From a virus: a stretch of DNA of 64,000 nucleotides. How positions within the stretch are numbered: the stretch's first letter is position 1; the number at the start of each line of letters is the position of its first letter. Below, in pieces: positions 14,545-64,000 of the stretch. A program made the position numbers and the translations under genes. The notes beneath the pieces were generated by a model that worked only from the letters and a program-made list of their open reading frames with translations, made no database searches and was not told the origin of the DNA. The stretch lies in the IMG/VR virus record IMGVR_UViG_3300017917_001687, positions 10,057-74,056 of that record; one strand, written 5' to 3'.

Positions 14545-15696
14545 ATGTCAATACCTAAAAGAAAAAATAATATAAAAGTTTATGGTGTAAATATTGATAC
14601 CGATGGTCCTGCGGTTACCGGTAGAAGGAAAGAATTGCTAGAAAGAATAACAAAATCTGATTCTTTTCTACCTGATTCTATTTTACACGATGATCTTGAT
14701 TTGGGTATGTTAGATTTTGTTAAAGAAAATTTCAAAGTTATTTCTGATGGGAATCAAATACCAATTATACCAAAAATTTTAACAATACAAAGATGGGGTG
14801 AGTTTACAAACAATTGGACTTTTTCGGATGAAGATGGTAATATGAAATTACCATTTGTTGCGGTGGTTAGAAAACCAGACGCACAACCCGGATCAAATCC
14901 AGCAATTCAAAGAACTATACCCGATAGAAGAGATTTCTTCTATGCTTCAGTCCCAACATGGGATGGAAATAAAATGGGTGCGGATGTTTATAAAATTCCA
15001 CAACCCGTAGCAATTGATTTAACTTTCGATGTTACTATTGTTTGTACTAAATTTAGAGATGTAAACAGGTTTAACAAAATCGTTTTACAAAAATTTGCAT
15101 CTCGTCAAGCCTATACAAGTGTTAAGGGTCATTATATTCCTATCGTTTTAGATAGGATTGAGGATAGTACTCCAATGGACACCTTGGATGGAAGAAGATT
15201 TTACATACAAAACTACACATTCACATTATTGGGGTTTTTAATAGATGATGAAGAATTTGAAGTTAAACCCGCAATTTCAAGAATATTGAAAGTTGCGGAA
15301 ACAGATGTAACAACAAAGAAAAAATCACCAATACTTGTAGAAAATGAAATTACAATCCAAAGTCTTTATGGTCCGGGTTCAATTGTTGCTAATTACTCTG
15401 CAACAACAACATTTGCTGCTGATAGATTTGTTGAGGTGTCTTTCGTTGATCAGTTGGGAACACTATCTGGTGATACTATTGACATACCTGTTAAATTATT
15501 TATAGAAAAAAATAGTAGAACAGGATCTACAACAACAACATTAAGTGATGAATATTCAGAATTAAACAAAACCAATCAATTTAGTGGGTTAACAATAACA
15601 ACCAGTAAAAAATCTAAATACGAATATATACCAATTACAACATCGGAATTTTTACCAGAGGTATCACCAACACCAACACACCTACAAACACCATAA
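14545..15696 (+). CDS. Tail terminator / sheath stabiliser (T4 gp15-like) with C-terminal extension; frameshifted relative to downstream PT-linker and propeller
   Basis: KLPFVAVVR, PQPVAIDLTFDVTI, RRFYIQNYTFTLLGFL fit gp15-like proteins; position before the sheath gene; the ORF ends just as a Pro/Thr repeat begins. Confidence 0.65.
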   Translation: MSIPKRKNNIKVYGVNIDTDGPAVTGRRKELLERITKSDSFLPDSILHDDLDLGMLDFVKENFKVISDGNQIPIIPKILTIQRWGEFTNNWTFSDEDGNMKLPFVAVVRKPDAQPGSNPAIQRTIPDRRDFFYASVPTWDGNKMGADVYKIPQPVAIDLTFDVTIVCTKFRDVNRFNKIVLQKFASRQAYTSVKGHYIPIVLDRIEDSTPMDTLDGRRFYIQNYTFTLLGFLIDDEEFEVKPAISRILKVAETDVTTKKKSPILVENEITIQSLYGPGSIVANYSATTTFAADRFVEVSFVDQLGTLSGDTIDIPVKLFIEKNSRTGSTTTTLSDEYSELNKTNQFSGLTITTSKKSKYEYIPITTSEFLPEVSPTPTHLQTP

Positions 15697-16940
15697 CAAA
15701 TACACCAACCAACACATCTACGCCAACACAAACCCCAACCAACACACCCACAAACACCATAACAAATACACCTACAAATAGTGTAACACCGACAGAAACT
15801 CCAACCAACACACCAACAAATAGTGTTACCCCAACACCAACAAGTATAATTCCTTTTGATATTTTAGTCGGCGGTAACTATAATATATATAGTGGTGTTT
15901 CGTCTCAGTGTTTCATTGTATTAAATTCAAATGGTTCAATAAATAAATCACTTAATTTTAATGATGGTTTTGGTAATGTCGTGTTTAATACTGTACAACA
16001 GATTGATAATAAAATAATTGCAGTGGGTAATTTTACATCATTTAGTGGTGTTACAACAAATAGAATTGTTAGGTTAAATTCTGACTTAACAAGAGATAAC
16101 ACATTTAGTATTGGAACTGGTTTTAATGGTTTAGTTCATTCTATACAACTCCAATCTGATGAAAAAATAATAGTCGGCGGTACTTTTACATCATATAGTG
16201 GTGTTACATCGAACAGAATTATTAGATTAAATACTGATGGATCAATAGATAATACATTTAATATTGGTACTGGTTTTGGTGGTACTGTTTATGTCACAAA
16301 AATACAATCTGACGGAAAAATAATAGTAGGTGGTAGTTTTGCATTGTATAGTGGTGTTACATCAAACAGAATTATTAGATTAAATACTGATGGATCAATA
16401 GATAATACATTTAGTGTTGGTACTGGTTTTGGTGACGTATCTCCATGGACATATTCATTTGATGTACAATCTGATGGAAAAATAATAGTTGGTGGAGATT
16501 TTACATCGTATAGTGGGGTTTCATTAAATAGAATTGTTAGGTTAAATACTGATGGGTCAATAGATAATACATTTAGTATTGGAACTGGTTTTGATAATCT
16601 TGTTTATGTCACAAAAATACAATCTGATGGAAAAACATTAGTAGGTGGTAATTTTACATCGTATAGTGGTGTTACATCAAACAGAATTATTAGATTAAAT
16701 ACTGATGGATCAATAGATAACACATTTAATATTGGAACTGGAGTTGATGATTCTATTTATGACATAGTGATTCAATCTGATGGAAAAATAATGCTTGGTG
16801 GAGAATTCATATCTTATAATGGAACAACAAGCAATTACATTATTAGATTAAACACCAATGGTTCAATAGATAATACATTTAGTATTGGTACTGGATTTAA
16901 TGGTACTGTTCGTGAGATAAATTTAATAAGGGAAATATGA
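15618..16940 (+). CDS. Pro/Thr linker plus delta-60-type beta-propeller repeats (probable C-terminal half of the gp15-like gene)
   Basis: Frame is open from 15618 (TAA at 15615-15617) with no ATG near the start. It reads TNTPTNTITNTPT... then about seven repeats of QSDGKIIVGGxFTSYSGVTSNRIIRLNTDGSIDNTFxIGTGF. The track's GTG start at 15981 falls mid-repeat. Confidence 0.75.
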   Translation: MRIYTNYNIGIFTRGITNTNTPTNTITNTPTNTSTPTQTPTNTPTNTITNTPTNSVTPTETPTNTPTNSVTPTPTSIIPFDILVGGNYNIYSGVSSQCFIVLNSNGSINKSLNFNDGFGNVVFNTVQQIDNKIIAVGNFTSFSGVTTNRIVRLNSDLTRDNTFSIGTGFNGLVHSIQLQSDEKIIVGGTFTSYSGVTSNRIIRLNTDGSIDNTFNIGTGFGGTVYVTKIQSDGKIIVGGSFALYSGVTSNRIIRLNTDGSIDNTFSVGTGFGDVSPWTYSFDVQSDGKIIVGGDFTSYSGVSLNRIVRLNTDGSIDNTFSIGTGFDNLVYVTKIQSDGKTLVGGNFTSYSGVTSNRIIRLNTDGSIDNTFNIGTGVDDSIYDIVIQSDGKIMLGGEFISYNGTTSNYIIRLNTNGSIDNTFSIGTGFNGTVREINLIREI

Positions 16941-17164
16941 CAATACAAGAATTTTTAAACGAAAACACATTATCTGCAATTGAAAAGACAGATACTTTAA
17001 TAATCAACTTAGTGGTTGGTGAATCAACTTATGGTTTAGATGTGGACACCTCTTCAATTGAAGCAGGTACACCATTAATCAGAACAACAAATTTCCAAAT
17101 TGATGAAAATTTATTGGTAAGTGAAGAATTATCTTTGGATATAACCACAACAAACATGTTGTAA
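16937..17164 (+). CDS. Hypothetical acidic protein (75 aa)
   Basis: ATGA overlap with the upstream stop suggests translational coupling. Confidence 0.55.
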   Translation: MTIQEFLNENTLSAIEKTDTLIINLVVGESTYGLDVDTSSIEAGTPLIRTTNFQIDENLLVSEELSLDITTTNML

Positions 17165-17470: not shown

Positions 17471-20326
17471 ATGGCAAATTCAAACAGAGTTTTTGTGTCA
17501 CCGGGTGTGTATACATCTGAAAAAGATTTAACATTTGTAGCACAAAGTGTAGGGGTGAGTACGTTGGGATTAGTGGGTGAAACACTAAGAGGTCCAGCTT
17601 TCGAACCAATTTTAATAACAGACTTCGATGAGTTCAAATCATATTTTGGTGGAACTTTACCTGAAAAAGATGGTAATGGCAACCCAAAATATGAATTACC
17701 TTATTTCGCTAAGGCTTATCTTGAAGAATCTAATCAATTATTCGTAACTAGAATACTTGGATTAACAGGTTATAAACCAGTAAAAACATTCGCAATTCAA
17801 ACTATAGGTGGTGTTGAAGTTGATACTACAACGTATACAGGTACAACGTATACAGGTACAACAATGACAGTTACAGGTATTACCGGATCATCATTTTATA
17901 ACATATTATCAGGTGTCACATCTTACGATGGACAATCTATGTTAAATTATTTCACAACCAATTATAGCGGTCTAACCTCGGGTCAAACTGGTACTTGGTT
18001 TGTTATGGGTCTTGTACCTGAAAGTGCAACAAGTGGTTTAACAGCAGGTTTAGAGGTTATTTCACCTTTGACTGGTTTAAATAATGCCGATAATAACAAC
18101 ACCAAAGAATGGTACAATGTATTAGTAAACAGTACATACGATAATGTTTATTCGTATTTGTTTGTTTACAATAGTGGAACCACGTCATTTAATTACACTG
18201 AATTTGAGTATTCAGCAACACAATACACTGAATATAACAATAGAGTAGTTGCGGCTTTAAGATCAAGAGGTTCTTATGCGGGACAAACATTAACTCTTGA
18301 AACGACATCTAATTCTAATTTTAACATTTCAGGTTCAGATTTATCGGTTAATCCACTTTCTGAATTTACACTTAATGTTACAGGTTCAACAAGTAACTCT
18401 AAAACATTTACTTGTAGTTTAGATACATCATCATCAAAATACATTACTAAAGTATTGGGTACAGATGTTTATGATAAATTAAGATCTGAAATTCCTGTTT
18501 ATGTTTACGAAGTTTACCCTAATTACTTAAAAGCAGCATTTGAACAAGGTTTCATAAAAGGTTTAAGTTTAACTGAAGTTTATAACACCGAAAATAATTC
18601 ATTCTTAAGAGGATGGGATACACCGGTATCACCAATGGTGGTATCTGAAGTTAGAGGTGGTGAAGTTTCAGACTTATTTGAAATTGTAACCATATCTGAT
18701 GGTGATGGTGCAAACTACGATGTTAAAGTTTCATTTATTAATATTGATATTGAAACAGGTGAGTTTGATGTAATTGTTCGTGATTTTAACGATACCGATG
18801 ATAACATTGTTGTACTTGAGAAATTTACAAGATGTTCAATGAATCCTGACGTAACTGGTTATGTTGGAAGAAAAATTGGTACTGTTGATGGTGAATATGA
18901 ATTACGTTCAAGATACATTATGTTACAAATGAACGAAAATCACCCGGTAGATGCGTACCCTGCAGGTTTTAAAGGATTTGTTAGTCACACATCATTCGGT
19001 GGTAGTTCACCATTAGGTTCAGTAATGTATAAAACACAATACTACACCGCTGGTGACACTACAGGATATCAAGTGGATGGTACACCTATTTTATCAGGTG
19101 GAGACAAATTGAGAAGAAGTTACTTAGGTGTATCAAGTCAAGTTGGTCTTGATAGAGACTTATTGAAATTCAAAGGTACATCGGCAGTTGGTGTAACCAA
19201 AGGTTTCCACTTATCAACAAATGCTTCAACAATCACAGGAACAACCTTTATTACAACTCCTTACGATTTAGAAGGACAAACAGGAACAGATAATTTCTTA
19301 ACAACTTTAGGTAATCGTAAATTCACAACAGTTGTTTGTGGTGGTTTCGATGGTTGGGACATTTACAGAAATGTAAGGACTTATGGTGACGAATACATTT
19401 ATGGTAAGAAAACTTACGTGAGTGGTGACACCAACAATGGTGGTGTATTTAGTACTTCATCTACAAGTCCTAATTCTGACTACTACGCATACATTAAAGG
19501 TATCGATACGTTCGCTAACCCTGAAGCTGTTGATATTAACATATTTGCAACCGCAGGTATTAACTTCTACGACCATAGTTCATTGACAACATACGCAATT
19601 GACACAATTGAAGAAGATAGAGCGGATTCATTATATGTGATATCTTCACCAAATTACCCAACATCTGATGAAGTGTTAGACGCATTGGACACTGTTGAAT
19701 TGGATAGTAACTATTCAGCAACATACTGGCCATGGATTCAAATCAGAGATGTTGATAATGCAACACAAATATATGTTCCACCAACAGGTGAAGTATTAAG
19801 AAATATTGCATTAACCGACAACGTATCGTTCCCATGGTTCGCAGTGGCTGGTTACTCAAGAGGTTTAGTTAACTCAATCAAAGCGGTTAAGAAATTAACT
19901 CTTGATGAACGTGATGACCTATACAAAGGAAGAATCAATCCAATTGCAACTTTCTCAGATACAGGAACAATTATTTGGGGTAACAAAACTTTACAAGTTA
20001 GAGAATCTGCACTTGATAGAATAAACGTAAGAAGATTGTTGTTAAGAGCAAGAAAATTAATTTCAGCAGTTGCGATTAGATTGTTATTTGAACAAAATGA
20101 TGAGATTGTACGTAACGAGTTCTTGAGATTAGTTAATCCTATTCTTGAATCAATTAAGAGAGAAAGAGGTCTATATGAGTTTAGAGTAACAGTATCTAAC
20201 GATCCGGAAGATATTGACGCTAACACATTAAGAGGTAAGATTTATATTAAACCAACTCGTTCTCTTGAATTCATAGATGTTGAATTTATAATTACACCTA
20301 CAGGTGCATCGTTTGATAATATCTAA
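17471..20326 (+). CDS. Contractile tail sheath protein (gp18-like)
   Basis: FVSPGVYTSEKD N-terminus; YSATYWPW, PWFAVAGYSRG, RINPI, WGNKTLQ, LDRINVRRLL, LFEQND, IYIKPTRSLEFI. Confidence 0.95.
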   Translation: MANSNRVFVSPGVYTSEKDLTFVAQSVGVSTLGLVGETLRGPAFEPILITDFDEFKSYFGGTLPEKDGNGNPKYELPYFAKAYLEESNQLFVTRILGLTGYKPVKTFAIQTIGGVEVDTTTYTGTTYTGTTMTVTGITGSSFYNILSGVTSYDGQSMLNYFTTNYSGLTSGQTGTWFVMGLVPESATSGLTAGLEVISPLTGLNNADNNNTKEWYNVLVNSTYDNVYSYLFVYNSGTTSFNYTEFEYSATQYTEYNNRVVAALRSRGSYAGQTLTLETTSNSNFNISGSDLSVNPLSEFTLNVTGSTSNSKTFTCSLDTSSSKYITKVLGTDVYDKLRSEIPVYVYEVYPNYLKAAFEQGFIKGLSLTEVYNTENNSFLRGWDTPVSPMVVSEVRGGEVSDLFEIVTISDGDGANYDVKVSFINIDIETGEFDVIVRDFNDTDDNIVVLEKFTRCSMNPDVTGYVGRKIGTVDGEYELRSRYIMLQMNENHPVDAYPAGFKGFVSHTSFGGSSPLGSVMYKTQYYTAGDTTGYQVDGTPILSGGDKLRRSYLGVSSQVGLDRDLLKFKGTSAVGVTKGFHLSTNASTITGTTFITTPYDLEGQTGTDNFLTTLGNRKFTTVVCGGFDGWDIYRNVRTYGDEYIYGKKTYVSGDTNNGGVFSTSSTSPNSDYYAYIKGIDTFANPEAVDINIFATAGINFYDHSSLTTYAIDTIEEDRADSLYVISSPNYPTSDEVLDALDTVELDSNYSATYWPWIQIRDVDNATQIYVPPTGEVLRNIALTDNVSFPWFAVAGYSRGLVNSIKAVKKLTLDERDDLYKGRINPIATFSDTGTIIWGNKTLQVRESALDRINVRRLLLRARKLISAVAIRLLFEQNDEIVRNEFLRLVNPILESIKRERGLYEFRVTVSNDPEDIDANTLRGKIYIKPTRSLEFIDVEFIITPTGASFDNI
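17827..17862 (+). repeat. 15-nt tandem duplication TACAACGTATACAGG in the sheath gene (TTYTG x2)
   Basis: Two exact copies plus a partial third copy. Confidence 0.8.
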
Positions 20327-20593: not shown

Positions 20594-21082
20594 ATGGCAG
20601 ATTTATTAATGAAAATGCCGGTTCCATACGAACCGAAAAGAGTTAACAGGTTTATACTAAGATTCCCTTCAAGTTTGGGTATAAATGAATGGTATGTAGC
20701 ATCAGCAGCTAGACCAAGTGCAAAAATTAATGCGGTTGAAATTCCTTTCATCAACACTTCAACTTTCGTTGCAGGTAGATTTAATTGGAACGAAATTAGG
20801 GTTAAATTCAAAGATCCAATCGGACCTTCGGCCTCTCAAGCGTTGATGGAATGGTTCCGTTTACATGCGGAATCAGTTACAGGACGTATGGGTTATGCTG
20901 CTGGTTATAAGAAAGACATTGAATTGGAAATGTTAGACCCAACAGGTGTTGTGGTTGAAAAGTGGATTCTTCAAGGTACTTTCATTACCGATTTGAACTT
21001 TAATGAATTAGATTACAATAATGATGCGTTGGCGTCTATTGATTGTTCTCTTCGCATGGATCGTTGTATCCAAGTTTACTAA
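20594..21082 (+). CDS. Tail tube protein (gp19-like)
   Basis: EPKRVNRFILRF, AGRFNWNEIRVKFKD, YKKDIELEMLDPTGVVVEKWILQGTF..LDY; follows the sheath gene. Confidence 0.9.
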   Translation: MADLLMKMPVPYEPKRVNRFILRFPSSLGINEWYVASAARPSAKINAVEIPFINTSTFVAGRFNWNEIRVKFKDPIGPSASQALMEWFRLHAESVTGRMGYAAGYKKDIELEMLDPTGVVVEKWILQGTFITDLNFNELDYNNDALASIDCSLRMDRCIQVY

Positions 21083-21110
21083 TATTTACAAAAATACATC
21101 TGTCAACATA

Positions 21111-21143
21111 AAAGGTCTCTCAAAAGGAGACCTTTACTTTTTT
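21111..21143 (+). terminator. Intrinsic terminator after the tail tube gene
   Basis: AAAGGTCTC / GAGACCTTT stem followed by ACTTTTTT. Confidence 0.75.
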
Positions 21144-21189
21144 ATATAAGTTTTGTAAATTGATATAGTTATATAAAAAAATAATCAAT

Positions 21190-21939
21190 ATGGAAGAATA
21201 TAGAATAGATCCAACAATTTCTTATGATGTGGTTGAATTACCAAGTAGAGGTATACACTACCCAAATAACAAAAAATCAGTAAAAGTTTCTTACTTGACA
21301 GCATCCGATGAAAACATACTTTCATCTCAAAATTTAATTGCAACAAATGGTGTAATGGAAGAGTTGTTGAAAAGAAAAGTCTTGGATAAAGATATTGATA
21401 CAAATGATTTGGCGGAAGAAGATAAACAAGCAATTCTTTTATTTTTAAGAAACACCGCATTTGGTCCCGAATATAAATTTTATTTAACCGACCCAAAAAC
21501 CGAAAAAGAATTTACATCCTCGGTTGATTTAAGTGAAGTTAAATTCAAAGATTTCACACTTGTTCCTGATGCGAATGGTGAATTTAATTACCACATGAGT
21601 AAATGTAATGTTGATATTACGTTTAAATTCTTAACACCAAAACAAAAAGAAGATATCAAAAAAATTGAAGAAAGTTGGAATGGTCTTGGTGTTGCACCAA
21701 TTATTACCAAACAACTTGAAATGATGATTAAATCAGTTGCAGGTAATAAAGATATGATGAACATACACAATTTTGTTGAGAAATTACCAATAAAGGACTC
21801 ACAAGATTTTAAAAAATATGTTAAAGATAATACACCAGGTTTAGACCTTAAAAGAACAGTTAAGACCCCGTCAGGAGATGACATCCAAGTTGAAGTTGGA
21901 TTCGGGGTAGAGTTTTTTCGCCCTTTCTACGGATTATAA
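21190..21939 (+). CDS. Baseplate hub assembly / tail assembly chaperone (T4 gp26-like)
   Basis: VELPSRG..Y, YLTASDENIL, AILLFLRNTAFG..Y and a C-terminal FGVEFFRP; lies between tube and tape measure. Confidence 0.75.
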   Translation: MEEYRIDPTISYDVVELPSRGIHYPNNKKSVKVSYLTASDENILSSQNLIATNGVMEELLKRKVLDKDIDTNDLAEEDKQAILLFLRNTAFGPEYKFYLTDPKTEKEFTSSVDLSEVKFKDFTLVPDANGEFNYHMSKCNVDITFKFLTPKQKEDIKKIEESWNGLGVAPIITKQLEMMIKSVAGNKDMMNIHNFVEKLPIKDSQDFKKYVKDNTPGLDLKRTVKTPSGDDIQVEVGFGVEFFRPFYGL

Positions 21940-22072
21940 AAAAGGTCAATTAGACGAAATACTTTTTTTGGTTAAAAGAGGATTCTCTTATGGAGACATT
22001 CTTTCAATGCCCGTCTTTATTAGAAGGTATTATGTTGAGTACATTTTGGAATTGGAAAATGATCCAAGTTAA
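21911..22072 (+). CDS. gp51-like chaperone extension in the +1 frame (probably reached by frameshift; absent from the ORF track)
   Basis: +1 frame opens after TAG 21908-21910 and reads (S)FFALSTDYKKGQLDEILFLVKRGFSYGDILSMPVFIRRYYVEYILELENDPS. FSYGDILSMPVFIRRYY resembles gp51/G-T chaperone C-termini. No ATG at the start. Confidence 0.65.
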   Translation, partial: SFFALSTDYKKGQLDEILFLVKRGFSYGDILSMPVFIRRYYVEYILELENDPS

Positions 22073-22080
22073 TATTTATT
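22073..22080 (+). promoter_or_regulatory. Putative late promoter TATTTATT (tape measure)
   Basis: 3 nt before ATG 22084. Confidence 0.55.
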
Positions 22081-22083
22081 AGT

Positions 22084-28835: not shown

Positions 28836-29161
28836 TGAGTAGACAATATTTTAATAGATACGAGTTTTTTATTGATGATGATAGTTTTAGTATCGTTCCG
28901 GGTATTGAAATACCAATCAAAACAACAGATAAATACCAGTTTTTTAAAAGGGGTAAAGACAGGTTGGATAAAATGTCACAACAATATTATGGAACACCTG
29001 TTTTTGGTTGGTTAATATTGCAAGCGAATCCACAAGCGGGTAGTTTAGAATTTGAAATACCTGATAATTATGTTTTAAGGATTCCATTTCCATTAATCGT
29101 GTCTTTACAAGATTACAAAAGAAATGTAGAATTGTATAAGTTATATTATGGAGAACAATAA
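28835..29161 (+). CDS. LysM-like baseplate wedge protein (gp53-like)
   Basis: DRLDKMSQQYYGTPVFGWLILQANP...LRIP; TAATG coupling to the upstream gene. Confidence 0.8.
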   Translation: MSRQYFNRYEFFIDDDSFSIVPGIEIPIKTTDKYQFFKRGKDRLDKMSQQYYGTPVFGWLILQANPQAGSLEFEIPDNYVLRIPFPLIVSLQDYKRNVELYKLYYGEQ

Positions 29162-53841: not shown

Positions 53842-54762
53842 ATGGCAATAGGAAGTTACGGAATTATAAGACCAGCAGATGTATCTCCAGAAGATGTAGA
53901 AATATATTACCACTACGTGGCAAATAGAACATCTACCTCTGAAGTTACACTAAAAAGATTAAGTTCTGTCGATATTTTGACACCGGTATTTCACAATTCA
54001 GATACCACGGATGACACATCAGCACCAAATGTTGAGATTTTGGGTGGATTGTATAACCTTAAATTAACTGCTTCGGATTTTTCTGATTTGGGTATATATA
54101 CCCTACACATGAGACCAAAACAGATTAGAACAACAATAACTGATTGTGGTATTTTGGCATCATTACCTTCTGTTAGGGGTCTTGTTATTGATTTATCAAA
54201 CGTTCCTGCTGCTGACAGAAATAAATTCACACCTCAGGGATTGATTGGTTATAGAGTTGAGTATATTAACACTTCAGACAACAAAAAAATACCAAACTTT
54301 TATAGGTTGGTAACATCGTCTTTCTATTGTACACCAATTGTATCAAATTTGACGAGCACGTCTCAAAAGTCAATAAGATACCAATATAGTGAACAACCAA
54401 CAAACCTAATGTTTTTGACGATTACTCCGTCATCAGCACCAACAAACAAACCAAACACGGTTCCGTTTATTGGAACCCCATCACAAAAAATTATTTTAAC
54501 AAATACATTCTTCAACCCAACAACTTTAGAAATTGAAATGGTTGAACACGATGCAAGTACATTGGCAAACGCACTTTATGGTAATCAAAGTAAGGCCGTT
54601 TCTCAAGGTATTTACACAATTTATGACAACAACAACAATATCTATAAACAATACAATCTTTACGAAATTAAAGACGAATTTAATGAGACATTATATGAAA
54701 TTCGTGAAGAGAGAAATGATATTGACGAAACACTAAATTTTGATACAATTAGTACAACATAA
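53842..54762 (+). CDS. Virion structural protein (306 aa)
   Basis: Late-promoter motif at 53823-53830; coupled to the downstream gene. Confidence 0.5.
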   Translation: MAIGSYGIIRPADVSPEDVEIYYHYVANRTSTSEVTLKRLSSVDILTPVFHNSDTTDDTSAPNVEILGGLYNLKLTASDFSDLGIYTLHMRPKQIRTTITDCGILASLPSVRGLVIDLSNVPAADRNKFTPQGLIGYRVEYINTSDNKKIPNFYRLVTSSFYCTPIVSNLTSTSQKSIRYQYSEQPTNLMFLTITPSSAPTNKPNTVPFIGTPSQKIILTNTFFNPTTLEIEMVEHDASTLANALYGNQSKAVSQGIYTIYDNNNNIYKQYNLYEIKDEFNETLYEIREERNDIDETLNFDTISTT

Positions 54763-57700
54763 TGGCAAAAAGGAAGATACCTAATCAAGCAGCAAGCGGC
54801 GCTGAAACATTTAGTGACTTTTTAGTTGGTAGACAAATTACCGATGGAACATCATCGCTTACCAATTCCGTTTTTGCCTTAGATAAATCAATACCCGAAA
54901 AAGACAGTAAAACTTTTAAGACTAATCCTTTTAGTGAATATATCACTTTATCCAATCTTAAACAAGAAACTGTTTCAAATGTTACAACAAGTAATTCATC
55001 TACAAGAAGAAGAACAGATACGGTACAATTTAGAACAAATAAAAAACGTGGAGATAAGTCATTATTTGGTTCTTTAAAAAGTAGAATATTGGTTTCATTA
55101 ACTAATATCATTCAAAACTTTCCTGCGGGTCTACAAATCATTTCAGATCGTCCGATAGGTAGTAACACTTATAGTGCTTTCAACATTACTTATGATGATA
55201 GTTTAAATAGAACAACGTTTTTTGTTGAAAATAGTAAAATATTTAACCCATTTGATATTGGATTTATCCCTCCTTTGAGTGATATTGCACCTACATCAAT
55301 GAACCCTATTAGGGACTTTTATTCGTCATATACAAATTATGTTCTTGATTTATCAAATCAAACATATCCCGTAGTTGGATATACACAACCAGACAACAAC
55401 AATCAAATTAAATTGGTTGTTTTTGGTAAACCATTTACGGGTACAACATATACACCAAATCTATTAATAAGACCAAACGATGGTGTTGTTGAAGAGTTTT
55501 TTGGTTCATTGGACGATTTAGAAGGAGCACTACTAAACAGAGATAGTAATCCAATATATACAACATCGTTTCAAGTACCTAAAGATAATGAGGACACCTC
55601 AAAAACATCATTAATAACTGTTCAATATAGTTGGCCAGTTAGTAGTGATGGTTGGAATATCCAAATTGATGGTTTAGATTATGAAAATTATGTGAATAAT
55701 TTAAGTGATATTGGGGATGAGGTCGATGATTATAAATCAAACTTAACTGTTAGGTTTTTAGCTGCACCACAACTATTTGAATTTGATACCGAAGATAAAA
55801 AAGCGGAAAGTGTATTTCAATTATATGGTCAAAGTTTTGATAGTGTAAAAAAATACATTGACAACATTGCTTACATGAGAAATGTAAGTTACGATGCGGT
55901 TAATAACGTGCCTGATGTACTTTTAAAAAACTTGGCGGAAAATTTAGGTTTATCCACAATTAATCTTTTTGATCAAAAATCATTAGATGAGGTTCTTTAT
56001 TCAAGACTTGAATCGAATTATGATGGTGTGGCAACCGGTACTAACCTTGTAGAAGCAGAATATGAATTTTATAGAAGATTATTAGTAAACTTGGCTTACA
56101 TTTATAAGTCTAAAGGTACTAGAGGATCTATTGATTTCTTTTTAAAGTTTTTGGGGGCTCCTGAACCTTTAATTAGAATTGACGAATACATTTACAGAGT
56201 TACATCAATGCCTTCAAGTTTTGACTTGGAAAAAGATATATATGATGTTATTCAGGGTCAAAAAGTTTACACCTATGGTGAGTTTAATACGACCGCATTT
56301 ACATACAATTCAATATCATATACTGGAACAACAAGTTTTGATAGGGAGGGTTATCCAGTTGACGAATTAACTGGATTACCAAGAAGGGCGTTTAATCAAA
56401 CTGAAGGTATATTTTATGGTGCGGGCGCTGGATGGTATGATGAAACATTATCACATCGTTCACCATTGGTTTTAGATAATGAAAACTCTGTTTTAACGGG
56501 TAGAACAAAAACCATAAAAACTAAAAATAAACCATACACATATGGTGAAGATTATTTTGATGTGTTTAGAACACTCCCTGGTTTAGATACAGGATATGGA
56601 TTAACATCGGAAATTGATAACTCAAAAGGAAAACCAAGGGAAGACGATCCTTCTTTAATTTTAAACAGAAAAAATATTGGGGTATATATTTCACCTGCAA
56701 GAGCACTTGATTACGATATATACAGACAAGGTAGAGATTTATTAATTGCTTTCGGTTCTAATACTTTATATCCACAAACAGGTGCAACATTTGCGGAGTA
56801 TGTCGATAATTTCATACATAAACTTGTAACAAATTCAAATAAAATTCGTTACAAGAAAAATTATATACAATTAGAAGACGTATATAGGGACTACATTAGT
56901 CAAACAGGATTTACACCATACTATCAAATAGATGTAACAGAATTCGTTGAAAGAATATCACCATATTGGATGCAATTAGTTGAACAACTGGTACCATCAA
57001 CAACACAATGGACAGGTGGTAATTTAGTTGATAACAACTTATTCGGTAGACCAAAATATTGGTATAGATTAGGTTGTCAACCAGCACAATTTATTGAAAA
57101 CTTGTATCCTGATTTTGAGTCTGCAATAGAAGAAGATCTTGAAACAATATTGGGTGAGGAAAACAACTTTAGAAACCTAATCAACCTAACAGGGGTAACT
57201 TATTACCCGGTAGTAGAAATAGATGGTATTAAATATGGTGGTCCAACATATAGTGGATATACCAACTCAATGTCAATAGTTGTTAGTGGTACCACAAATA
57301 CAACAAATAGTGCTAAGTTATTCAATGTGTTTCCTATGACTGGTTGTACTAGTTTGAATAGTGGGGACACAACTAACATGGCATTGATTTGTGATTATAA
57401 AGATTACTTATCACCTGACGTAGTTAAGATTAAACAACTTTGGTTATCAGCAATAGAAGAACTAGTTTCAACAATAACATTAACAAGAAATAGTGCGGGT
57501 TATGATGATTATGCACCATACACCGCAACCACTGGACAAACATATTATGTAGAAGAGATTCCTCTTTTGTATTATGAAACATATATCGATAAAGACGGAG
57601 ATGAAAAGATTTTATTCACGTCTGTTAAGTATGGACCTAACCAATGCTCTGTTTCAGACTATCTTGATTATAGGTTTGAAAGTGAATATAGTGTTAGTAA

Positions 57701-59078
57701 AAGTGTTAGTGGAATATGTGTTGAGGTAACTAGTGGTGATGAATATTATTGTGAAACCCCGACTGGTAACACATTTGTTTCTGATGTTTATGTTGAGGTT
57801 ATTGGAACAAAAACAGGTATACAAAGTGATCCTAATGGTTGGCCATTTTACATTTATGCAAATTGTTTAAGTGGTTATAATCAAAATGCGGATGTGTACA
57901 TTGAGAGAGTTGTTGGTGAAGAATGTAAATTTAAAATAACAGGTGTAAGTAGTAACGATGTTATTGATTTCAATATTGTTGATGCTGCCAATAGTGAGGT
58001 TAAATTCAGGATAGATGGACTACAAGTAAAATTTGTTCATGATCCTTGTAATAAAAGCCATGTTGAAATATTTGAAATTGTTGGGTGGCAGGGTACACCT
58101 ATAACTCAAATATCATACAATAAAGGTGTGACGTATTGTGATAATTACACAGGTTATACATTACAACCAATTGTTGAGTATCAAAGTAGTTTTGATTATG
58201 GTATTGGATGTGAAACTAAGGTATTGGTTGTTGAGTCAGGTTTAACGATTAATAGTGGAACAACTGTCCAAGATATTGTTGATTATATAAGTGGTGGAAC
58301 CATAACAGAAAAGAATGTTTGTGATTTAGATGTAAACGAATACATTCTTTCTGTCGAACATATTCCATGTTCTGGATTCACTTTTAGTAACATTCAAAAC
58401 GCACTGAATAATAGTTATAAGTTTTCATTTAATTATGTAAAACTAAAGGTTACAAGTAAAGAGTGTTTAGGTAGTGTAAAAACTAGTTTAATAACCGGAT
58501 TAACAAAGAATGATACATATGAGGTGTTTGAGGTTTTACCAACAACACAACTACGAGTATATACCAATAAAATAATAGAAGATTTTGGTTCTGTAACCAA
58601 CGGTTCTTATTTCTTTGATGATAGATTCCCTGAAGAATTACAACCAAAACCAACAAACTTCATTGAACCTTGCTGTGATCACCCGAAAGAATTATATAAA
58701 AATGGTGATTTCTTAATAACCAAATATGGTGAATTAATTGAGGTTATTAGTGTTGATTTAAATTATTGTGAAACAAACTTATACTACAACTTAAACTTAT
58801 CAAAAAACAATATTCCATTAAACACTCAATTTTTGATTGTTTTAAATGGTAATAATAGTGAACAAATTTTGATGAAGCATAAGTATGAAAAACACTTAAA
58901 TAATGGTTTTTACACGGGTCAATATTACACAACGTCAGGTTGTACATACGAACCAACTTGTGAAGAATTATTACCACCAGTTCCAACACCATCTGTAGAA
59001 ATATTAATAAACCCAATGATAACTGAAAATGATGAATACATTTCCGTTGGGGACAATGAATATTTAAAATATAATTAA
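54762..59078 (+). CDS. Baseplate wedge protein, gp7/P2 gpI-like core with Cys-rich C-terminal half
   Basis: VPDVLLKNLAENLG...YRRLLVNLAYIYKSKGTRGSIDFFLKFLG..IRIDEY matches the gp7/gpI-type motif. Confidence 0.65.
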   Translation: MAKRKIPNQAASGAETFSDFLVGRQITDGTSSLTNSVFALDKSIPEKDSKTFKTNPFSEYITLSNLKQETVSNVTTSNSSTRRRTDTVQFRTNKKRGDKSLFGSLKSRILVSLTNIIQNFPAGLQIISDRPIGSNTYSAFNITYDDSLNRTTFFVENSKIFNPFDIGFIPPLSDIAPTSMNPIRDFYSSYTNYVLDLSNQTYPVVGYTQPDNNNQIKLVVFGKPFTGTTYTPNLLIRPNDGVVEEFFGSLDDLEGALLNRDSNPIYTTSFQVPKDNEDTSKTSLITVQYSWPVSSDGWNIQIDGLDYENYVNNLSDIGDEVDDYKSNLTVRFLAAPQLFEFDTEDKKAESVFQLYGQSFDSVKKYIDNIAYMRNVSYDAVNNVPDVLLKNLAENLGLSTINLFDQKSLDEVLYSRLESNYDGVATGTNLVEAEYEFYRRLLVNLAYIYKSKGTRGSIDFFLKFLGAPEPLIRIDEYIYRVTSMPSSFDLEKDIYDVIQGQKVYTYGEFNTTAFTYNSISYTGTTSFDREGYPVDELTGLPRRAFNQTEGIFYGAGAGWYDETLSHRSPLVLDNENSVLTGRTKTIKTKNKPYTYGEDYFDVFRTLPGLDTGYGLTSEIDNSKGKPREDDPSLILNRKNIGVYISPARALDYDIYRQGRDLLIAFGSNTLYPQTGATFAEYVDNFIHKLVTNSNKIRYKKNYIQLEDVYRDYISQTGFTPYYQIDVTEFVERISPYWMQLVEQLVPSTTQWTGGNLVDNNLFGRPKYWYRLGCQPAQFIENLYPDFESAIEEDLETILGEENNFRNLINLTGVTYYPVVEIDGIKYGGPTYSGYTNSMSIVVSGTTNTTNSAKLFNVFPMTGCTSLNSGDTTNMALICDYKDYLSPDVVKIKQLWLSAIEELVSTITLTRNSAGYDDYAPYTATTGQTYYVEEIPLLYYETYIDKDGDEKILFTSVKYGPNQCSVSDYLDYRFESEYSVSKSVSGICVEVTSGDEYYCETPTGNTFVSDVYVEVIGTKTGIQSDPNGWPFYIYANCLSGYNQNADVYIERVVGEECKFKITGVSSNDVIDFNIVDAANSEVKFRIDGLQVKFVHDPCNKSHVEIFEIVGWQGTPITQISYNKGVTYCDNYTGYTLQPIVEYQSSFDYGIGCETKVLVVESGLTINSGTTVQDIVDYISGGTITEKNVCDLDVNEYILSVEHIPCSGFTFSNIQNALNNSYKFSFNYVKLKVTSKECLGSVKTSLITGLTKNDTYEVFEVLPTTQLRVYTNKIIEDFGSVTNGSYFFDDRFPEELQPKPTNFIEPCCDHPKELYKNGDFLITKYGELIEVISVDLNYCETNLYYNLNLSKNNIPLNTQFLIVLNGNNSEQILMKHKYEKHLNNGFYTGQYYTTSGCTYEPTCEELLPPVPTPSVEILINPMITENDEYISVGDNEYLKYN

Positions 59079-59108: not shown

Positions 59109-61202
59109 ATGGCACTAACAGGAAAAACAATTGGCGAATTAAACGCATTAGATTACACAACCAATAACCTTTTACTTCCAGTTGAGGAGGCAGGTTTAAC
59201 TTATCACATTCCTTTTTCAGGGATAAACTATACTGAAACGGTGTATTCAGGATTAACACTTGCAATGAGTACTAGTGAATTAACTCCAGGACAATACTAT
59301 TTGATTACTGATTTCAAAACTTGTTATGACCAACCTGACTTTGATTCAACAGGTACTGCAATCACCACTGGAAATTATAAACAAGGTAGTGTTTCACCAA
59401 TACTTGTATTAGCAACAGGAACAGATACAATATCACAACTAGCATACCAACCACAATATTCAGGTGATACGATTTATTATGACCCATATTTCTCAGTAAC
59501 AGAAGTTACAGGTGGCGATGCGTTTGGTAGAATCACATATAGAATTGACGATCAAGGAAACGCCTTTGACTATGACTTTAGGGAAGTTTTATTCAAGAGG
59601 TATAACACCTACAGTGCTAACAGTAGTTATGATGGTACGGTTAGTATTGATGGTTCAGGTAATGTTACAGGTGTGAATACATTCTTTACAAATCAAAGTA
59701 ATGGAAACGTTATAGGTGTTGTAAATTCTAATAGTGCATACGGAGTAGATTTTTATGAAATCGTTTCGATTACTTCAGATACTAGTATGGTTGTTACAGG
59801 AAATACAATTACAGCTATTGACAATACTCTATATACTCCATCAACAAATGAAAGCGGGATGTCCTATAAAAAAAGTAATATAATTTCAAATACAGGTTTT
59901 ACGGAATACAATACTTTTACGAGCTACAGTAGTTGTTTTAATAACACTTGCGGAAACAAAGTAGGAACCACAATAGAAGATGGGTACGATTTTTTATTAT
60001 CAAATAACGTTTTTAGAAGTAGTCCATATATTGATAATTCATTTGGAAGTTATTTTAGGAATAACACATTCAACGATGATTGTACAGGTAACACAATCAA
60101 ATATCGTTTTTATAATAACGTTATTGATAATGATTTTGATAATAATGTTATTACATCAAGATTTCACAATAATATGATTGTTGTTGATTTTAATGACAAC
60201 TATGTTCAAAATAATTTTTACAATAATAATTTAGGTGACGATGACGGAACCAGTTTTACCGATAATATTATAAACGGAAATTTTAATGGTAATTTTTATA
60301 CAGGTTATGATCCTTTTCAATATAATACAATAAACGGAAGTTTTTATAATAACAAAATATTACGTAGGTTTGATAACAATAATATTCAATCATTCTACGA
60401 TAATATATTAGAAGGTTCATTTAATAATAACCAAATTGGTGAGAATTTTTATGGAAACACTATTAAAGGAAGTTTTGGTGATAACGTACTTGGACGAAAT
60501 GTTTATAATAATACTTTCTATGGTAATTTCACAACAAATACTGGTGGACCAAACATTTACGCCAATTATTTTTACAATAATGTTTTAGTGAATAATTTAG
60601 GTTCTGATTTCTATAGTAATGATATAGGAGATATTGATAATATTCAAAACTTTAGTTTTGACCAGAATTCATTTCAGGGTAATTGTCGTAATAACACTTT
60701 TACAGGAAATACTCAATTTAATAAAATCGGACATGAGTTTTACAGTAACATAATAGCAACTAATTTTTCATATAACCAAATTGGTGATTATTTTAATAAT
60801 AATACAATTGCTAGTGATTTTGGTTACGGAGGTGGAAACTATAGGGGTAATGTAATCGGTAACGGATTCCAAGGTAATACTATTGGAGAATATTTCTATG
60901 ATAACACAATTGGTGACCAATTTACTCTTAACACAATTCCAGATTTTTTCATAAATAATAAAGTCTCTTACGGAATGAATTCTACGATGTTTGGAGATTC
61001 CGATTCTTCAGGTCAAACTAGAAATAATAATTTCACATTCACCCAATTTTCAGAAGATTTAAGACTTGCGGGTGGTGTTGGTGGAAATCCAATACTTTAT
61101 ACTGATATACCTGTAAATGTTGTAAAAGACGCATCAATCGGTGGTTCATATGTAACTTTCTTAAGTGGTGGTACTATTGTGGTACAATCAATAACCATAT
61201 AA
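59109..61202 (+). CDS. Tail fibre/spike protein with Asn-rich parallel beta-helix repeats
   Basis: ELTPGQYYLITDF N-terminal module, then repeated N.IG..F..N.I / NN.F units from about 59940 to 61040. Confidence 0.65.
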   Translation: MALTGKTIGELNALDYTTNNLLLPVEEAGLTYHIPFSGINYTETVYSGLTLAMSTSELTPGQYYLITDFKTCYDQPDFDSTGTAITTGNYKQGSVSPILVLATGTDTISQLAYQPQYSGDTIYYDPYFSVTEVTGGDAFGRITYRIDDQGNAFDYDFREVLFKRYNTYSANSSYDGTVSIDGSGNVTGVNTFFTNQSNGNVIGVVNSNSAYGVDFYEIVSITSDTSMVVTGNTITAIDNTLYTPSTNESGMSYKKSNIISNTGFTEYNTFTSYSSCFNNTCGNKVGTTIEDGYDFLLSNNVFRSSPYIDNSFGSYFRNNTFNDDCTGNTIKYRFYNNVIDNDFDNNVITSRFHNNMIVVDFNDNYVQNNFYNNNLGDDDGTSFTDNIINGNFNGNFYTGYDPFQYNTINGSFYNNKILRRFDNNNIQSFYDNILEGSFNNNQIGENFYGNTIKGSFGDNVLGRNVYNNTFYGNFTTNTGGPNIYANYFYNNVLVNNLGSDFYSNDIGDIDNIQNFSFDQNSFQGNCRNNTFTGNTQFNKIGHEFYSNIIATNFSYNQIGDYFNNNTIASDFGYGGGNYRGNVIGNGFQGNTIGEYFYDNTIGDQFTLNTIPDFFINNKVSYGMNSTMFGDSDSSGQTRNNNFTFTQFSEDLRLAGGVGGNPILYTDIPVNVVKDASIGGSYVTFLSGGTIVVQSITI

Positions 61203-61280: not shown

Positions 61281-63368
61281 ATGGCGGCATGTTATAAATA
61301 TAATATAAGTATAAGTAGTACAGATACCGGTTCTGCGACTGGCAATTCGGATCCTGCTAAGGATTATCGTGTTTTTGTGGATTATATCGATTGTGATGGA
61401 AATTCACAAACTCAATCATTTTCAACTGGTAGTTATGAACTATGTTTAGATGACACAAATGGAGCACCATCATTATATTATTTTCAAAACAACACACAAA
61501 ACTCCGCAACAAATAGTTCGGCAACTACGAGTGGTGATGTGTGTACCGCAACATCAAATTTCTATAGTTGTTGTGATACTGGTGGAACAATATATAGTAC
61601 TTTAAGTGGTTTTCAATATGAGGTTGGTAATGTTTATAGTGACGGTGCCGAATGTTATGTTGCTACATCAGATGGACCCGCAACAGAAACAGTTGATGAC
61701 ACTGGTCCAACATGGATTCAACAACCTAGTTGTGAGGCTGAATGTCCAAGTTGTCCAACCCCAACCCCAACGCCAACCCCAACCGAAGAAAAACCCGTTG
61801 TTAGCCCATCTGAAACTCCGACAAATACACCAACACCTACCGAAACTCCAACTGAAACACCAACACCTACCGAAACTCCGACAAATACACCAACTCCAAC
61901 TATAACACCAACAAATACTCCAACTCAAACTCCAACAAATACCCCAACTCAAACTCCAACAAATACACCAACCCAAACCCCAACAAATACTGTCACTAAT
62001 AGTGTTACACCAACCGAAACACCAACAAATACACCAACCAATACGGTTACTCCAACCGAAACTCCAACCCAAACACCAACTAATACTGTCACTCCGACCA
62101 ATACACCTACGAATACTGTTACACCAACAAATACTGTTACCTCTAGTATAACTCCAACTGAAACACCAACCCAAACTCCAACAAATACCGCCACTCCGAC
62201 TAATACACCAACAATTGGTAGTTCTGCAACTCCAACACCAACCATAACTGAAACTCCAACCGAAACCCCTACACAAACACCAACAAATACTATTACACCA
62301 ACCATAACTGAAACACCAACCAATACACCAACCGAAACTCCTACACAAACACCAACAAATACTATTACTTCTAGTGTAACCCCAACCAATACACCTACCG
62401 AAACACCAACAAATACACCAACTTCTAGTGTTACACCAACAGTAACCCCAACCAATACACCTACCGAAACTCCAACAAATACACCAACTTCTAGTGTTAC
62501 CCCAACCGAAACTCCTACACAAACACCAACCTCTAGTGTTACACCAACAAATACCCCTACCCAAACACCAACAAATACCCCTACAAATACTGTTACTTCT
62601 AGTGTTACACCAACCAACACACCAACCAATACTCCTACCGAAACTCCAACTAACACACCAACAAATACTGTTACCTCTAGTATAACTCCAACTGAAACAC
62701 CAACCAATACTCCTACCGAAACTCCTACACAAACACCAACTTCTAGCATTACACCAACAATTGGTAGTTCTGCAACTCCAACACCAACAATAACTGAAAC
62801 TCCAACCGAAACTCCAACCGAAACTCCAACAAATACTCCAACAAACACACCAACAAAAACCCCTACCAACACACCTACTGAAACCCCAACCCAAACCCCA
62901 ACCACAACACCAACAAACACAGTAACACCAACAAATACCCCTACCCAAACACCAACAAATACCCCAACCACAACACCAACAAACACAGTAACACCAACAA
63001 AAACACCAACCCAAACTCCAACAAATTCTGTAACACCAACAAACACAGTAACACCAACAAAAACACCAACAAATACTCCAACAAATTCTGTAACACCTAC
63101 ACATACACCAACAAACACACCTACTCCAACACAAAATTGTACACAATTTGTGATAACTTTAGCCTCGGGGTATACTAACACAGATGCGGGACCATTTAAC
63201 ATATCTGGTGTAACAAGTACATCTGAGATTGTATTATTAGCCGTTGGGGTTACTAAACAAGAGTTGATTAATGGTTACGTTATTAGTGATTGTTTTGGGA
63301 TAATCGGTGGAACGGTTCAAAGTATTGGACCATGTACAAATTCCGTACAGTACACCATACCAACATAA
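61281..63368 (+). CDS. Mucin-like virion protein: Cys-rich head, ~450-aa Pro/Thr stalk, small C-terminal domain
   Basis: TPT(N/E/Q/K)TPT repeats from about 61757 to 63135 flanked by Cys-containing domains; late-promoter motif at 61241-61248. Confidence 0.8.
61757..63135 (+). repeat. Low-complexity Pro/Thr coding repeat
   Basis: Degenerate 12-nt units (e.g. ACACCAACAAAT); a longer block [23 protein letters not shown] occurs twice (about 62205 and 62751). Confidence 0.9.
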
Positions 63369-63389
63369 AAAAATAAATAAAAATTTTGA

Positions 63390-64000
63390 ATGTCTAGTTT
63401 AAATATAAAAATATGTGATATTGTTTCTGATGGTTTATACACGATGAGTTATAAAACAGGAGCAAATCCTTGCCCAACAAATGACGGATTTACAACAATT
63501 GGTACTGGATTGACTGCATCAACAATAACTTTAACGGGTTTAACATTCAATACACAATATTGGATAAAAATGGTTGATGAGACCACTAACAGATATATAA
63601 TAAGAAATATAGAAACAAACCATAGTAAAACATTTCCGTGTTATGATACCATGTGTTTTAATGTTGAGGCTGATTGTGATATTTTTGAGTGCCAATGTAA
63701 AACATTCAACATTGAATTTTCACAAAATTGTGATGAGATACTATATTTCACATCGTGTGATGGAGATCCTATGGCGGTTCAGGCTAATTATTTTCCGGAA
63801 TACTCAACAACAACATTTAGTGGTGGAACATTTGTATATGTTTGTTCATGTACAACACCGGTGATTGATTGTACTGGTGTGACAATAACACAAGTAAGTT
63901 CTACTTGTATTGCCGCACCAACCCCAACCCCAACAGTAACCCCAACAAAGACACCAACCCCAACCCCAACAGTAACCCCAACAAAGACACCAACCCCAAC
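63390..64000 (+). CDS. Second Cys-rich / Pro-Thr mucin-like protein (3'-truncated; absent from the ORF track)
   Basis: MSSLNIKICDIVSDG...TGLTFNTQYWIKM (FN3-like)...FTSCDG...VCSCTTPVIDC...[17 protein letters not shown], open to the window end; 36-nt tandem repeat at 63918-64000. Confidence 0.8.
   Translation, partial: MSSLNIKICDIVSDGLYTMSYKTGANPCPTNDGFTTIGTGLTASTITLTGLTFNTQYWIKMVDETTNRYIIRNIETNHSKTFPCYDTMCFNVEADCDIFECQCKTFNIEFSQNCDEILYFTSCDGDPMAVQANYFPEYSTTTFSGGTFVYVCSCTTPVIDCTGVTITQVSSTCIAAPTPTPTVTPTKTPTPTPTVTPTKTPTP

Follow-up and report, generated by a model that had tools for sequence, protein, structure and literature searches.

Do the virion proteins of an uncultured phage carry a short sequence tag for their own glycosylation? 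We have studied this question in the IMG/VR virus record IMGVR_UViG_3300017917_001687, a viral contig of 74,056 bp. The window, i.e., the whole stretch that was analyzed and to which coordinates refer unless otherwise marked, comprises 64 kb with a GC content of ~31%. Its virion proteins contain a large excess of the tetrapeptide [ST]-G-x-T (Ser or Thr, Gly, any residue, Thr). We give about an even chance to the reading that this is a modification sequon, serving as the recognition tag of a phage-encoded cytoplasmic protein O-glycosyltransferase. An initial annotation had proposed such a sequon, together with a glycan built by the glycosyltransferase (GT) and methyltransferase (MTase) genes at 1-7462; the range that it described, from 14545, leaves out these genes and those upstream of the window. 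Below, G000 denotes our own record, in which coordinates upstream of 10,057 precede the window, and G001-G050 denote the records of relatives.

The [ST]-G-x-T motif in the virion proteins

The virion proteins (11,494 aa) contain 90 copies of the motif, compared with 13.7 expected from composition-preserving shuffles, an excess of ~7-fold. The non-virion proteins contain 4, with 3.1 expected. The protein-by-protein counts of the initial annotation were all reproduced. In the six richest proteins (the sheath, the 1398-, 586-, 367- and 1438-aa proteins and the 697-aa fiber), per-protein shuffles gave enrichments of 6- to 15-fold, and none of 2000 shuffles reached the observed count. The excess persisted when the sequences were shuffled more conservatively. 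Shuffling inside 10-residue windows gave an expectation of 19.5 ± 4.2, windows of 10, 20, 30 and 50 residues gave 15-20 with a maximum of 33, and dipeptide-preserving shuffles gave 19.2 ± 3.9. Under local and dipeptide-preserving shuffles the z score is ~17. An artifact of composition is thus ruled out by all three kinds of shuffle.

The signal is specific for this arrangement of residues. Among 8,000 triples of the form ab.c, SG.T (49 against 6.4 expected) and TG.T (41 against 7.3) are the sole recurrent outliers, ranking first and third by z score. The probability of finding Thr at position +3 is 0.54 after SG and 0.39 after TG, against a background of 0.09, and with any other residue before the Gly it is close to background. 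The excess of G.T is confined to those with a preceding Ser or Thr, and is gone once [ST]G.T is removed. Ser at +3 is not enriched, with 15 copies of [ST]G.S against 12.2 expected. The motif is therefore strict in its Gly and in Thr at +3, takes either Ser or Thr at position 0, and is free at x. Reversed, permuted and register-shifted forms were all found at expectation, as were [ND]G.T and N-x-S/T. The Bacteroidota O-glycosylation sequon D-[ST]-[AILVMT], which the initial annotation had set apart as a different motif, is flat here (39 against 44.7 ± 6.6). There is some preference in the flanking positions, for Tyr, Leu or Ile at -1 and for Ile or Phe at +4, and five adjacent pairs of motifs occur at a spacing of 4.

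At the DNA level, frame 0 contains the pattern 90 times and each other frame or strand one to three times, and the codons of the motif follow the synonymous usage of the genome. The signal therefore lies at the level of protein, and a DNA-level signal or a wrong reading frame is ruled out. The carriers are mutually dissimilar, with no BLAST similarity at E < 0.01, which rules out the spread of a single paralogous domain.

The motif is found in the insert domains of the sheath, the fibers, the large baseplate proteins and a β-propeller, and is missing from inner virion parts and replication proteins. All of the genes concerned lie on the plus strand. The 951-aa tail sheath (17471-20326) carries 11 motifs against 1.85 expected, at residues 123-304, 589 and 651. 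All 11 are N-terminal to the conserved sheath core, which begins near residue 670. An AlphaFold2 (AF2) model of the sheath (predicted local distance difference test score, pLDDT, 86.9) matches the fold of T4 gp18, and places the sites on one long strand, at two hairpin turns, at the ends of helices and in coil, i.e., in no single structural context. The initial annotation had noted a 15-nt duplication in the sheath gene that copies one motif. This is an exact tandem repeat (ACAACGTATACAGGT twice, at 17828-17857) that adds the residues TTYTG and so one more TGTT, and it appears to have added that site recently.

The densest carrier is the 367-aa virion protein (52713-53816), with 11 motifs against 1.1 expected. 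It has no Pfam match, leaving the label PKD given to it in the initial annotation unconfirmed, and its AF2 model is poor (pLDDT 62) and unfit for mapping the sites. The largest number is found in the 1438-aa virion protein (54762-59078; 19 against 1.4). Around these lie the 1398-aa (45929-50125; 10 against 1.6), 586-aa (50125-51885; 9 against 0.6) and 275-aa (51886-52713; 3 against 0.3) virion proteins and the 697-aa fiber-like protein (59109-61202; 9 against 1.4). The 1940-aa protein that had been called the hub (29148-34970) has 7 against 1.7, four of them clustered at residues 982-1005. A 383-aa protein of the virion module (14545-15696) has 3 against 0.34, all in its C-terminal 80 aa, and the 1609-aa protein (24006-28835) is weakly enriched, with 4 against 1.4. 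Two Pro/Thr-rich mucin-like proteins (61281-63998) have four motifs each; for the 695-aa protein this is no excess (3.6 expected), while 0.55 would be expected in the 203 aa visible of the second. The 319-aa DUF5122 β-propeller (15981-16940; PF17164, E = 9.5e-93) also has four, all in the blade consensus YSGVT. Four blades read F/Y-SGVT-[ST]NRI[IV]RLN, where Pfam sees six DUF5122 repeats, and these four sites, embedded as they are in the consensus, may be structural.

No motif was found in the 162-aa tail tube, the 249-aa T4_baseplate-family protein or the 627-aa protein in the tape-measure position (together at 20594-23967), in a 151-aa protein and the 610-aa Baseplate_J protein of the inner baseplate (43584-45873), or in the 306-aa protein (53842-54762), which is 89% identical to its G001 orthologue. 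The tube, the T4_baseplate protein, the 627-aa protein, Baseplate_J, the 306-aa protein and the sheath core would together be expected to contain 1.3 motifs at the background rate and ~8 at the enriched rate. The SNF2 protein and a 2287-aa protein also have none, and PolB, the DnaB-like, the gp32-like and a 340-aa protein have one each.

Distribution and turnover in related phages

Near-identical relatives of 155 and 125 kb are estimated to be 50% and 41% complete, and our own record is listed at 24% (CheckV-type estimates). These values imply a jumbo phage with a predicted genome of ~310 kb. Pfam matches were obtained for a family-B polymerase, an SNF2 helicase, the tail sheath, a gp19-like tube, a T4 baseplate protein, Baseplate_J and a gp32-like protein. 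None of the large virion proteins could be assigned to a family in Pfam or PHROG. Sheaths of 65-78% identity are encoded by more than 599 IMG/VR contigs. Among cultured phages the closest is Microcystis phage Mel-JY01, the sheath of which is 33% identical over its full length. Literature searches gave no report of a [ST]-G-x-T sequon, and no paper on Mel-JY01. A tblastn search with the 367-aa protein against cultured and INPHARED phages found no match. The same was true of an exact-word search for loci related to the 1438-aa protein, for which orthologues were obtained from G001 and G002 instead.

The motif is abundant throughout the close relatives. All 78 close sheath orthologues carry 4-14 copies, a total of 707 against 120 expected, and 120 homologues of the 367-aa protein contain 1148 against 108. 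In the latter family five sites are kept in 77-98% of the 120 homologues while x varies. At such well-kept sites position 0 alternates between Ser and Thr, Gly is found in at least 94%, x is free, and Thr at +3 is replaced by Ser in only 4-6%. In G002 the excess extends to a gp23-like capsid protein, with 4 motifs against 0.6 expected.

Individual sites nevertheless come and go. Our phage has 81 sites and G001, whose orthologues are 56-79% identical, has 85; only 50 are common to both, so that ~40% differ. The density is nonetheless unchanged in orthologues of about 65-70% identity. The positions of the motif are 83% conserved compared with 70% for the bulk of the sequence, and x is 48% conserved. 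The G001 orthologue of the 1438-aa protein has 19 motifs, 14 of them at shared positions; that of the 1940-aa protein has 14, and that of the 383-aa protein has 844 aa and 7 motifs. A density that stays constant while the positions move looks like selection for a number of tags, unlike a turn determined by the fold. The initial annotation had argued for a modification sequon rather than a structural repeat, and that argument is borne out by the free x position, the strict Gly and Thr(+3), the non-paralogous carriers, their mixed structural contexts and the turnover of sites. In the structural region of G001, a 4248-aa open reading frame (G001:86944-99690) has only 1 motif against 1.6 expected, and the adjoining 1073-aa Thr-rich protein has none against 5.9.

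The phages that carry the motif are T4-like jumbo phages with a GC content of 27-34%. Mel-JY01 has no excess (40 against 39.9 in the whole genome), with no motif in its sheath or in any large virion protein. Nor is the excess shown by the whole genome of a Phapecoctavirus (26 against 23.8), by the structural regions of LR756508.1 (6 against 4.0) and phage NCTB (16 against 11.6), or by the complete related jumbo genomes G048 (58 against 48) and G045 (74 against 53). These six rule out a generic property of sheath and fiber folds. A scan for some other enriched motif in the virion proteins of Mel-JY01 was uninformative, being dominated by one internal repeat domain.

When 146 sheath representatives are arranged in a tree, the trait forms clusters, yet is found on both main branches. 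The second, P0058-like clade lies on the other main branch from ours and is strongly enriched. Its member G026 (88% complete, 232 kb, 27% GC) has 174 motifs against 49, with 34, 21 and 14 in single proteins. The structural region of LR756501.1, a 735-kb uncultured phage, contains 33 against 11.5 in diverse contexts, including 8 against 0.7 in a 901-aa protein and 14 against 3.1 in a 695-aa protein. G050 (P0100) was considered as a third motif-rich contrast and rejected, since its count is a tandem-domain effect, the neighboring proteins have no motifs and its GT4 match is only 27% identical. All 15 motifs of its 1832-aa sheath (L218 10001-15499) are accounted for by a tandem domain with the consensus GG[ST]GYTxPxVxIxD. 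The tetrapeptide can thus be structural, which calls for caution in motif scans. As a separate observation, a 618-aa protein of G026 (G026:26258-28114) has weak LAGLIDADG/homing-endonuclease matches in its middle, and may represent a conserved gene, also found in G001, that is interrupted by an intein.

Candidate glycosyltransferases

One GT has a distribution like that of the motif. We selected proteins of G026 that have homologues in G001, G002 or our own record and none in Mel-JY01, G045 or G048. Sixteen proteins passed this filter, and the sole GT among them is a 410-aa GT4 (PF00534); the others include a LamG and fiber module, an FkbM MTase, the small subunit of RNR and a few proteins of unknown function. 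The G026 GT4 is 42-45% identical to a 406-aa protein of G002, although the sheath tree puts the two clades on opposite main branches. Of 23 fragmentary records of our own clade, 8 encode similar GT4 proteins near polB. When cultured and INPHARED phages were searched with the GT4, the best match was in LR756501.1 (34.5% identity over 97% of the query). It was this search that first led to LR756501.1, the structural region of which then proved to be enriched in the motif, a test in the forward direction. The 406-410-aa GT4 is present in G002, G003, G011, G012, G016, G018, G020, G025, G026 and LR756501.1, and every one of these that was checked is rich in the motif. Mel-JY01, G045 and G048 lack this enzyme, and LR756508.1 and NCTB gave no match to it. 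Matches at 25-27% identity, in the Phapecoctavirus and G050, are not accompanied by enrichment. A second GT4 (357-402 aa) and a GT2 (259-316 aa) encoded beside the head genes are common to the G002 and G026 clades, and were discarded as candidates because homologues occur in motif-poor genomes too.

The contig of our own phage has a different set of glycan genes. A 330-aa GT4-like protein of GT-B type starts at G000:9658, its C-terminal 197 aa being encoded at 1-594 (plus strand). It resembles viral GT4/RfaG-like clusters by ESM Atlas features (score 0.99) and structure (TM 0.89), and shares 23-31% identity with the GT4 of 406-427 aa found in relatives. It is followed on the same strand by the gene for the motif-free 2287-aa protein (599-7462), a fusion of approximately nine domains in which Pfam finds an FkbM MTase, three Methyltransf_24, GT17, RMNT_CmcI, three GT2 and GT4. 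This is a candidate lineage-specific enzyme of glycan elaboration. Upstream of the window (G000:8394-9665) lies the gene for a 423-aa GT9-like protein (ESM Atlas, PF01075). PF01075 is matched by 44 of 45 members of this family, with a best E value of 1.4e-8; our own protein, with E = 0.0011, scores below the curated cut-off. The family is well conserved over 80 homologues (49-92% identity). Many of these homologues (P0273-P0349) are fused C-terminally to GT2, GT4, Methyltransf_24 or FkbM domains, giving proteins of 630-741 aa, which suggests a modular swapping of glycan-building domains.

The genes for the 2287-aa and GT9-like proteins do not track the motif. Both were found only in our own record and in G022, i.e., in two of 24 close relatives' records searched, and both are absent from the syntenic site of the equally motif-rich G002. 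For the 2287-aa protein only one close relative was found in IMG/VR, with none in G001-G003, so it was rejected as a clade-wide writer. The GT9-like protein was rejected as a universal writer, as G022 is the only record among G001-G023 to have it, and none of G024-G038 does, the 88%-complete G026 included. Genes that are missing from motif-rich relatives cannot be the common cause of the motif. Of the earlier proposal that the cluster at 1-7462 builds the glycan attached at [ST]GxT, the presence of a genuine GT/MTase fusion stands, but the expected link with the motif does not. The narrower claim that this locus writes on the motif is weaker than the claim for a sequon. It had also been expected that relatives with GT clusters would share the enrichment. 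This is contradicted by the Phapecoctavirus and by Mel-JY01, both of which have GT clusters and no enrichment, the latter encoding several GTs and an FkbM fusion protein.

What else might the locus do? Its role could be limited to a collagen-like fiber and the Pro/Thr stalks, or to the host surface, without any relation to [ST]GxT. The GT genes adjoin a gene (G000:135-5051) for a 1638-aa protein that is almost pure (G-X-S)n, with ~390 triplets in which X is Thr, Leu, Ile or Gln and there is no Pro, ending in a globular C-terminal domain. They also adjoin LamG genes. Collagen-like and Pro/Thr-rich proteins are classical substrates of O-glycosylation (PMC7157674), and the failure of the 2287-aa and GT9-like genes to co-occur with the motif in relatives fits such a role. 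This leaves the motif itself unexplained, however, and would be compatible with a sequon if a different enzyme primes [ST]GxT. Moreover the S-G-x-S of the fiber has the form of the motif except at position +3. We consider it doubtful that the locus is unrelated to the motif, while taking the possibility seriously.

Some further features of these fibers may be recorded. The G026 homologue of the 1638-aa protein has only the C-terminal domain in common with it, on a non-collagen shaft with 34 [ST]GxT motifs. In LR756501.1 the motif-rich 695-aa protein (LR756501.1:586021-588108) also has a short G-T-S collagen-like stretch at residues ~50-140, echoing the collagen-like fiber of our phage. A module of three to five LamG (concanavalin-like) proteins beside the fiber gene is common to motif-rich phages (G000:5056-8323; G026:111998-114399 and 186980-188349), and has no homologue in Mel-JY01, G045 or G048. 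The LamG proteins may be lectin-like accessory proteins.

A putative glycosylation tag and its alternatives

The existence of a modification, its nature as a sugar, the residue that accepts it and the enzyme that writes it are all inferred, along the following lines. Ser and Thr on outward-facing parts of the virion proteins would be modified before or during assembly, giving the particle a coat of glycan. The 406-410-aa GT4 (GT-B) of motif-rich phages would be the most likely conserved priming enzyme, acting on a Y-G-X-Y unit in exposed loops and at strand ends. Lineage-specific modules, here the 423-aa GT9-like protein, the 330-aa GT4-like protein and the 2287-aa fusion, would then extend and methylate the glycan, and may in addition decorate the (G-X-S)n fiber and the Pro/Thr stalks. 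Since both the synthesis and the assembly of virion proteins take place in the cytoplasm, the writer would have to be soluble and use nucleotide sugars directly. Such variability of the elaboration modules would account for the low conservation of the glycan genes, lower than that of any other part. As an acceptor, position 0 is favored by its interchange of Ser and Thr; Thr at +3, being strict, would rather belong to the recognition, like the Thr of N-x-T. In its most general form, the proposal is that a large and abundant group of uncultured low-GC jumbo phages coat their whole outer virion with glycans by means of a cytoplasmic GT4 that reads [ST]-G-x-T, with sites gained and lost and modules swapped. 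This we put forward tentatively, at somewhat short of an even chance.

There are instructive likenesses to known systems. The glycans of BclA (Bacillus anthracis) contain rhamnose and methylated sugars. The 2287-aa phage protein has a rhamnosyl O-methyltransferase-like domain, and the collagen-like fiber gene of the phage lies beside GT genes. In Clostridioides difficile, SgtA places O-GlcNAc on the Thr of the GPT repeats of BclA3, i.e., T-G-P-T (PMC7157674). The spore-surface acceptor of SgtA/BclA3 and of BclA is thus an instance of [ST]-G-x-T, and SgtA, like the proposed writer, is a soluble GT acting on peptide directly from nucleotide sugar (PMC7157674). The phage motif can be read as one and a third collagen-like triplets, the Y-G-X-Y of a G-X-T repeat. 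Yet SgtA consists of GT-A and TPR domains, and no TPR-GT was seen in the Pfam scans run on the phage, no dedicated search having been made. The phage tag is scattered singly over globular virion proteins rather than lying in a triple helix. SgtA accepts both Ser and Thr, whereas +3 is strictly Thr in the phage, and the Y position of the phage's own collagen-like fiber is Ser instead of Thr.

In the cytoplasm, before export, TibC adds heptose to Ser in ..NSGGAV.. loops of a β-helix (PMC4358343). TibC and Aah, bacterial autotransporter heptosyltransferases (the BAHT family, GT9-like), hyper-glycosylate many Ser residues in short loops of a β-rich surface protein, and the TibA sites include N-S-G-G-A (PMC4358343). 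The 423-aa GT9-like protein lies beside viral clusters auto-named 'Aah/TibC family' in the ESM Atlas (score 0.91), but a comparison with PDB sequences (phmmer and profile) gave no TibC or any heptosyltransferase at E ≤ 10. The iron finger of TibC has four Cys residues, 339, 342, 358 and 370 (PMC4358343); those conserved in the GT9-like family are at 192, 363, 384 and 405, with no CxxC pair. BAHT enzymes modify Ser only, and their motif has no Thr at +3. The GT9-like gene, as described above, is absent from most motif-rich relatives, including G001-G003 and G026.

A GT4 also acts as priming enzyme in Gram-positive cocci, where GtfA/GtfB place O-GlcNAc on Ser and Thr of serine-rich repeat adhesins in the cytoplasm and further GTs extend it. 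The motif-tracking phage enzyme is likewise a GT4 of GT-B type, although the similarity is that of GT4 in general, and the Gtf substrate is a low-complexity Ser-rich repeat, not a tetrapeptide. Chlorovirus PBCV-1, with a eukaryotic host, has the multi-domain GT/MTase A064R and atypical capsid sequons, N-linked to Asn. It shares with our phage a virus-encoded cytoplasmic machinery, fused GT and sugar-methyltransferase domains, and a non-canonical motif on the virion surface; the phage fusion is much larger and is not conserved among motif-rich relatives. Bacteroidota O-glycosylation likewise uses a short defined sequon on many unrelated proteins, but being periplasmic and lipid-linked, could not reach cytoplasmic virion proteins. 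Among phages, Freeman et al. in 2023 are said to have proposed that the GTs of actinobacteriophages glycosylate the phages' own structural proteins inside the cell, a proposal echoed in PMC11256854. These glycans are on C-terminal extensions of the capsid and tail-tube proteins, with no defined short sequon. Our phage also encodes its own GTs (GT2, GT4 and GT17 with MTase domains, the GT9-like and the GT4-like proteins), but here the candidate tag is a strict tetrapeptide on ~12 outer tail, baseplate and fiber proteins.

Could the motif instead be a structural or physicochemical element, such as a turn, a strand start or a Thr-rich surface, that contributes to stability, folding or adhesion without covalent modification? 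Motifs containing Gly suit turns, and in the models sheath sites 235 and 304 and several of the 367-aa protein appear to lie exactly between two strands. At -1 and +4 there is a preference for hydrophobic or aromatic residues, some sites are nearly invariant across the 120 homologues, and the propeller and the G050 sheath both provide motifs that belong to a repeated domain. Against this, the same folds occur without the motif in Mel-JY01, G045, G048 and the other controls, and the sites fall in strands, helix ends, coil and turns alike. The usual turn formers [ND]G.T are at expectation, the non-virion proteins of the same genome have no excess, and ~40% of the sites shift between close orthologues at constant density. 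On balance we judge a purely structural role unlikely.

The arguments for a reader acting in trans, i.e., the triple outliers, the strict positions and the turnover, apply equally to one that is not a GT. The motif might direct phosphorylation, acylation or nucleotidylation, or the docking of an accessory, chaperone or decoration protein, e.g., one that is LamG-like; the three to five LamG proteins with the fiber module, and three unknown proteins, are confined to motif-rich genomes to the same degree as the GT4. However, no kinase or other Ser/Thr-modifying enzyme was seen among the 16 proteins with the required profile, and four residues are few for the docking of a protein. The genomes devote a good deal of coding capacity to GTs and sugar MTases, and extracellular particles are typical targets of glycosylation. 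We regard a reader of another kind as improbable. An artifact of statistics or annotation (composition, low complexity, wrong frames or a DNA-level signal) is scarcely credible, for although the carriers are somewhat rich in Ser, Thr and Gly, the excess has a z score of ~17 under local and dipeptide shuffles with flat controls, frame specificity and ordinary codons, and is reproduced in hundreds of homologues.

Several observations weigh against the reading of [ST]-G-x-T as a glycosylation sequon. The preference for Tyr, Leu or Ile at -1 and Ile or Phe at +4, together with the several sites in hairpin turns, makes a structural contribution possible, and the exclusion of Ser in favor of Thr at +3 would be unusual if +3 were the acceptor. 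Our own contig, which covers ~24% of the genome, has no orthologue of the 406-410-aa GT4, only the 330-aa relative. The association of GT4 and motif rests on approximately three independent contrasts, and could reflect shared ancestry or host. Its profile is shared by unknown proteins of 717, 342 and 206 aa and by the LamG and fiber module. Lastly, there are GT-rich phages without the motif, so that GT content alone predicts nothing.

Virus-encoded glycosylation of virions is already known in kind; what is new here is a defined candidate sequon together with a candidate enzyme. To our knowledge, phage virion glycosylation has so far been documented only for actinobacteriophages, without a defined sequon. 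If the glycosylation reading is correct, self-glycosylation would be extended to T4-like phages, with a strict tag in hundreds of environmental jumbo-phage contigs and a concrete pair of enzyme and tag, GT4 and [ST]GxT. It would also offer a short portable tag for cytoplasmic O-glycoengineering, comparable to N-x-S/T with NGT for N-linkage. Whatever the mechanism, the motif is a simple marker that may part exposed from buried virion proteins where protein families hardly match. The turnover of sites at a steady density is reminiscent of the glycan shields known from animal viruses, and raises the question of what such a coat would protect these phages from, or bind to.

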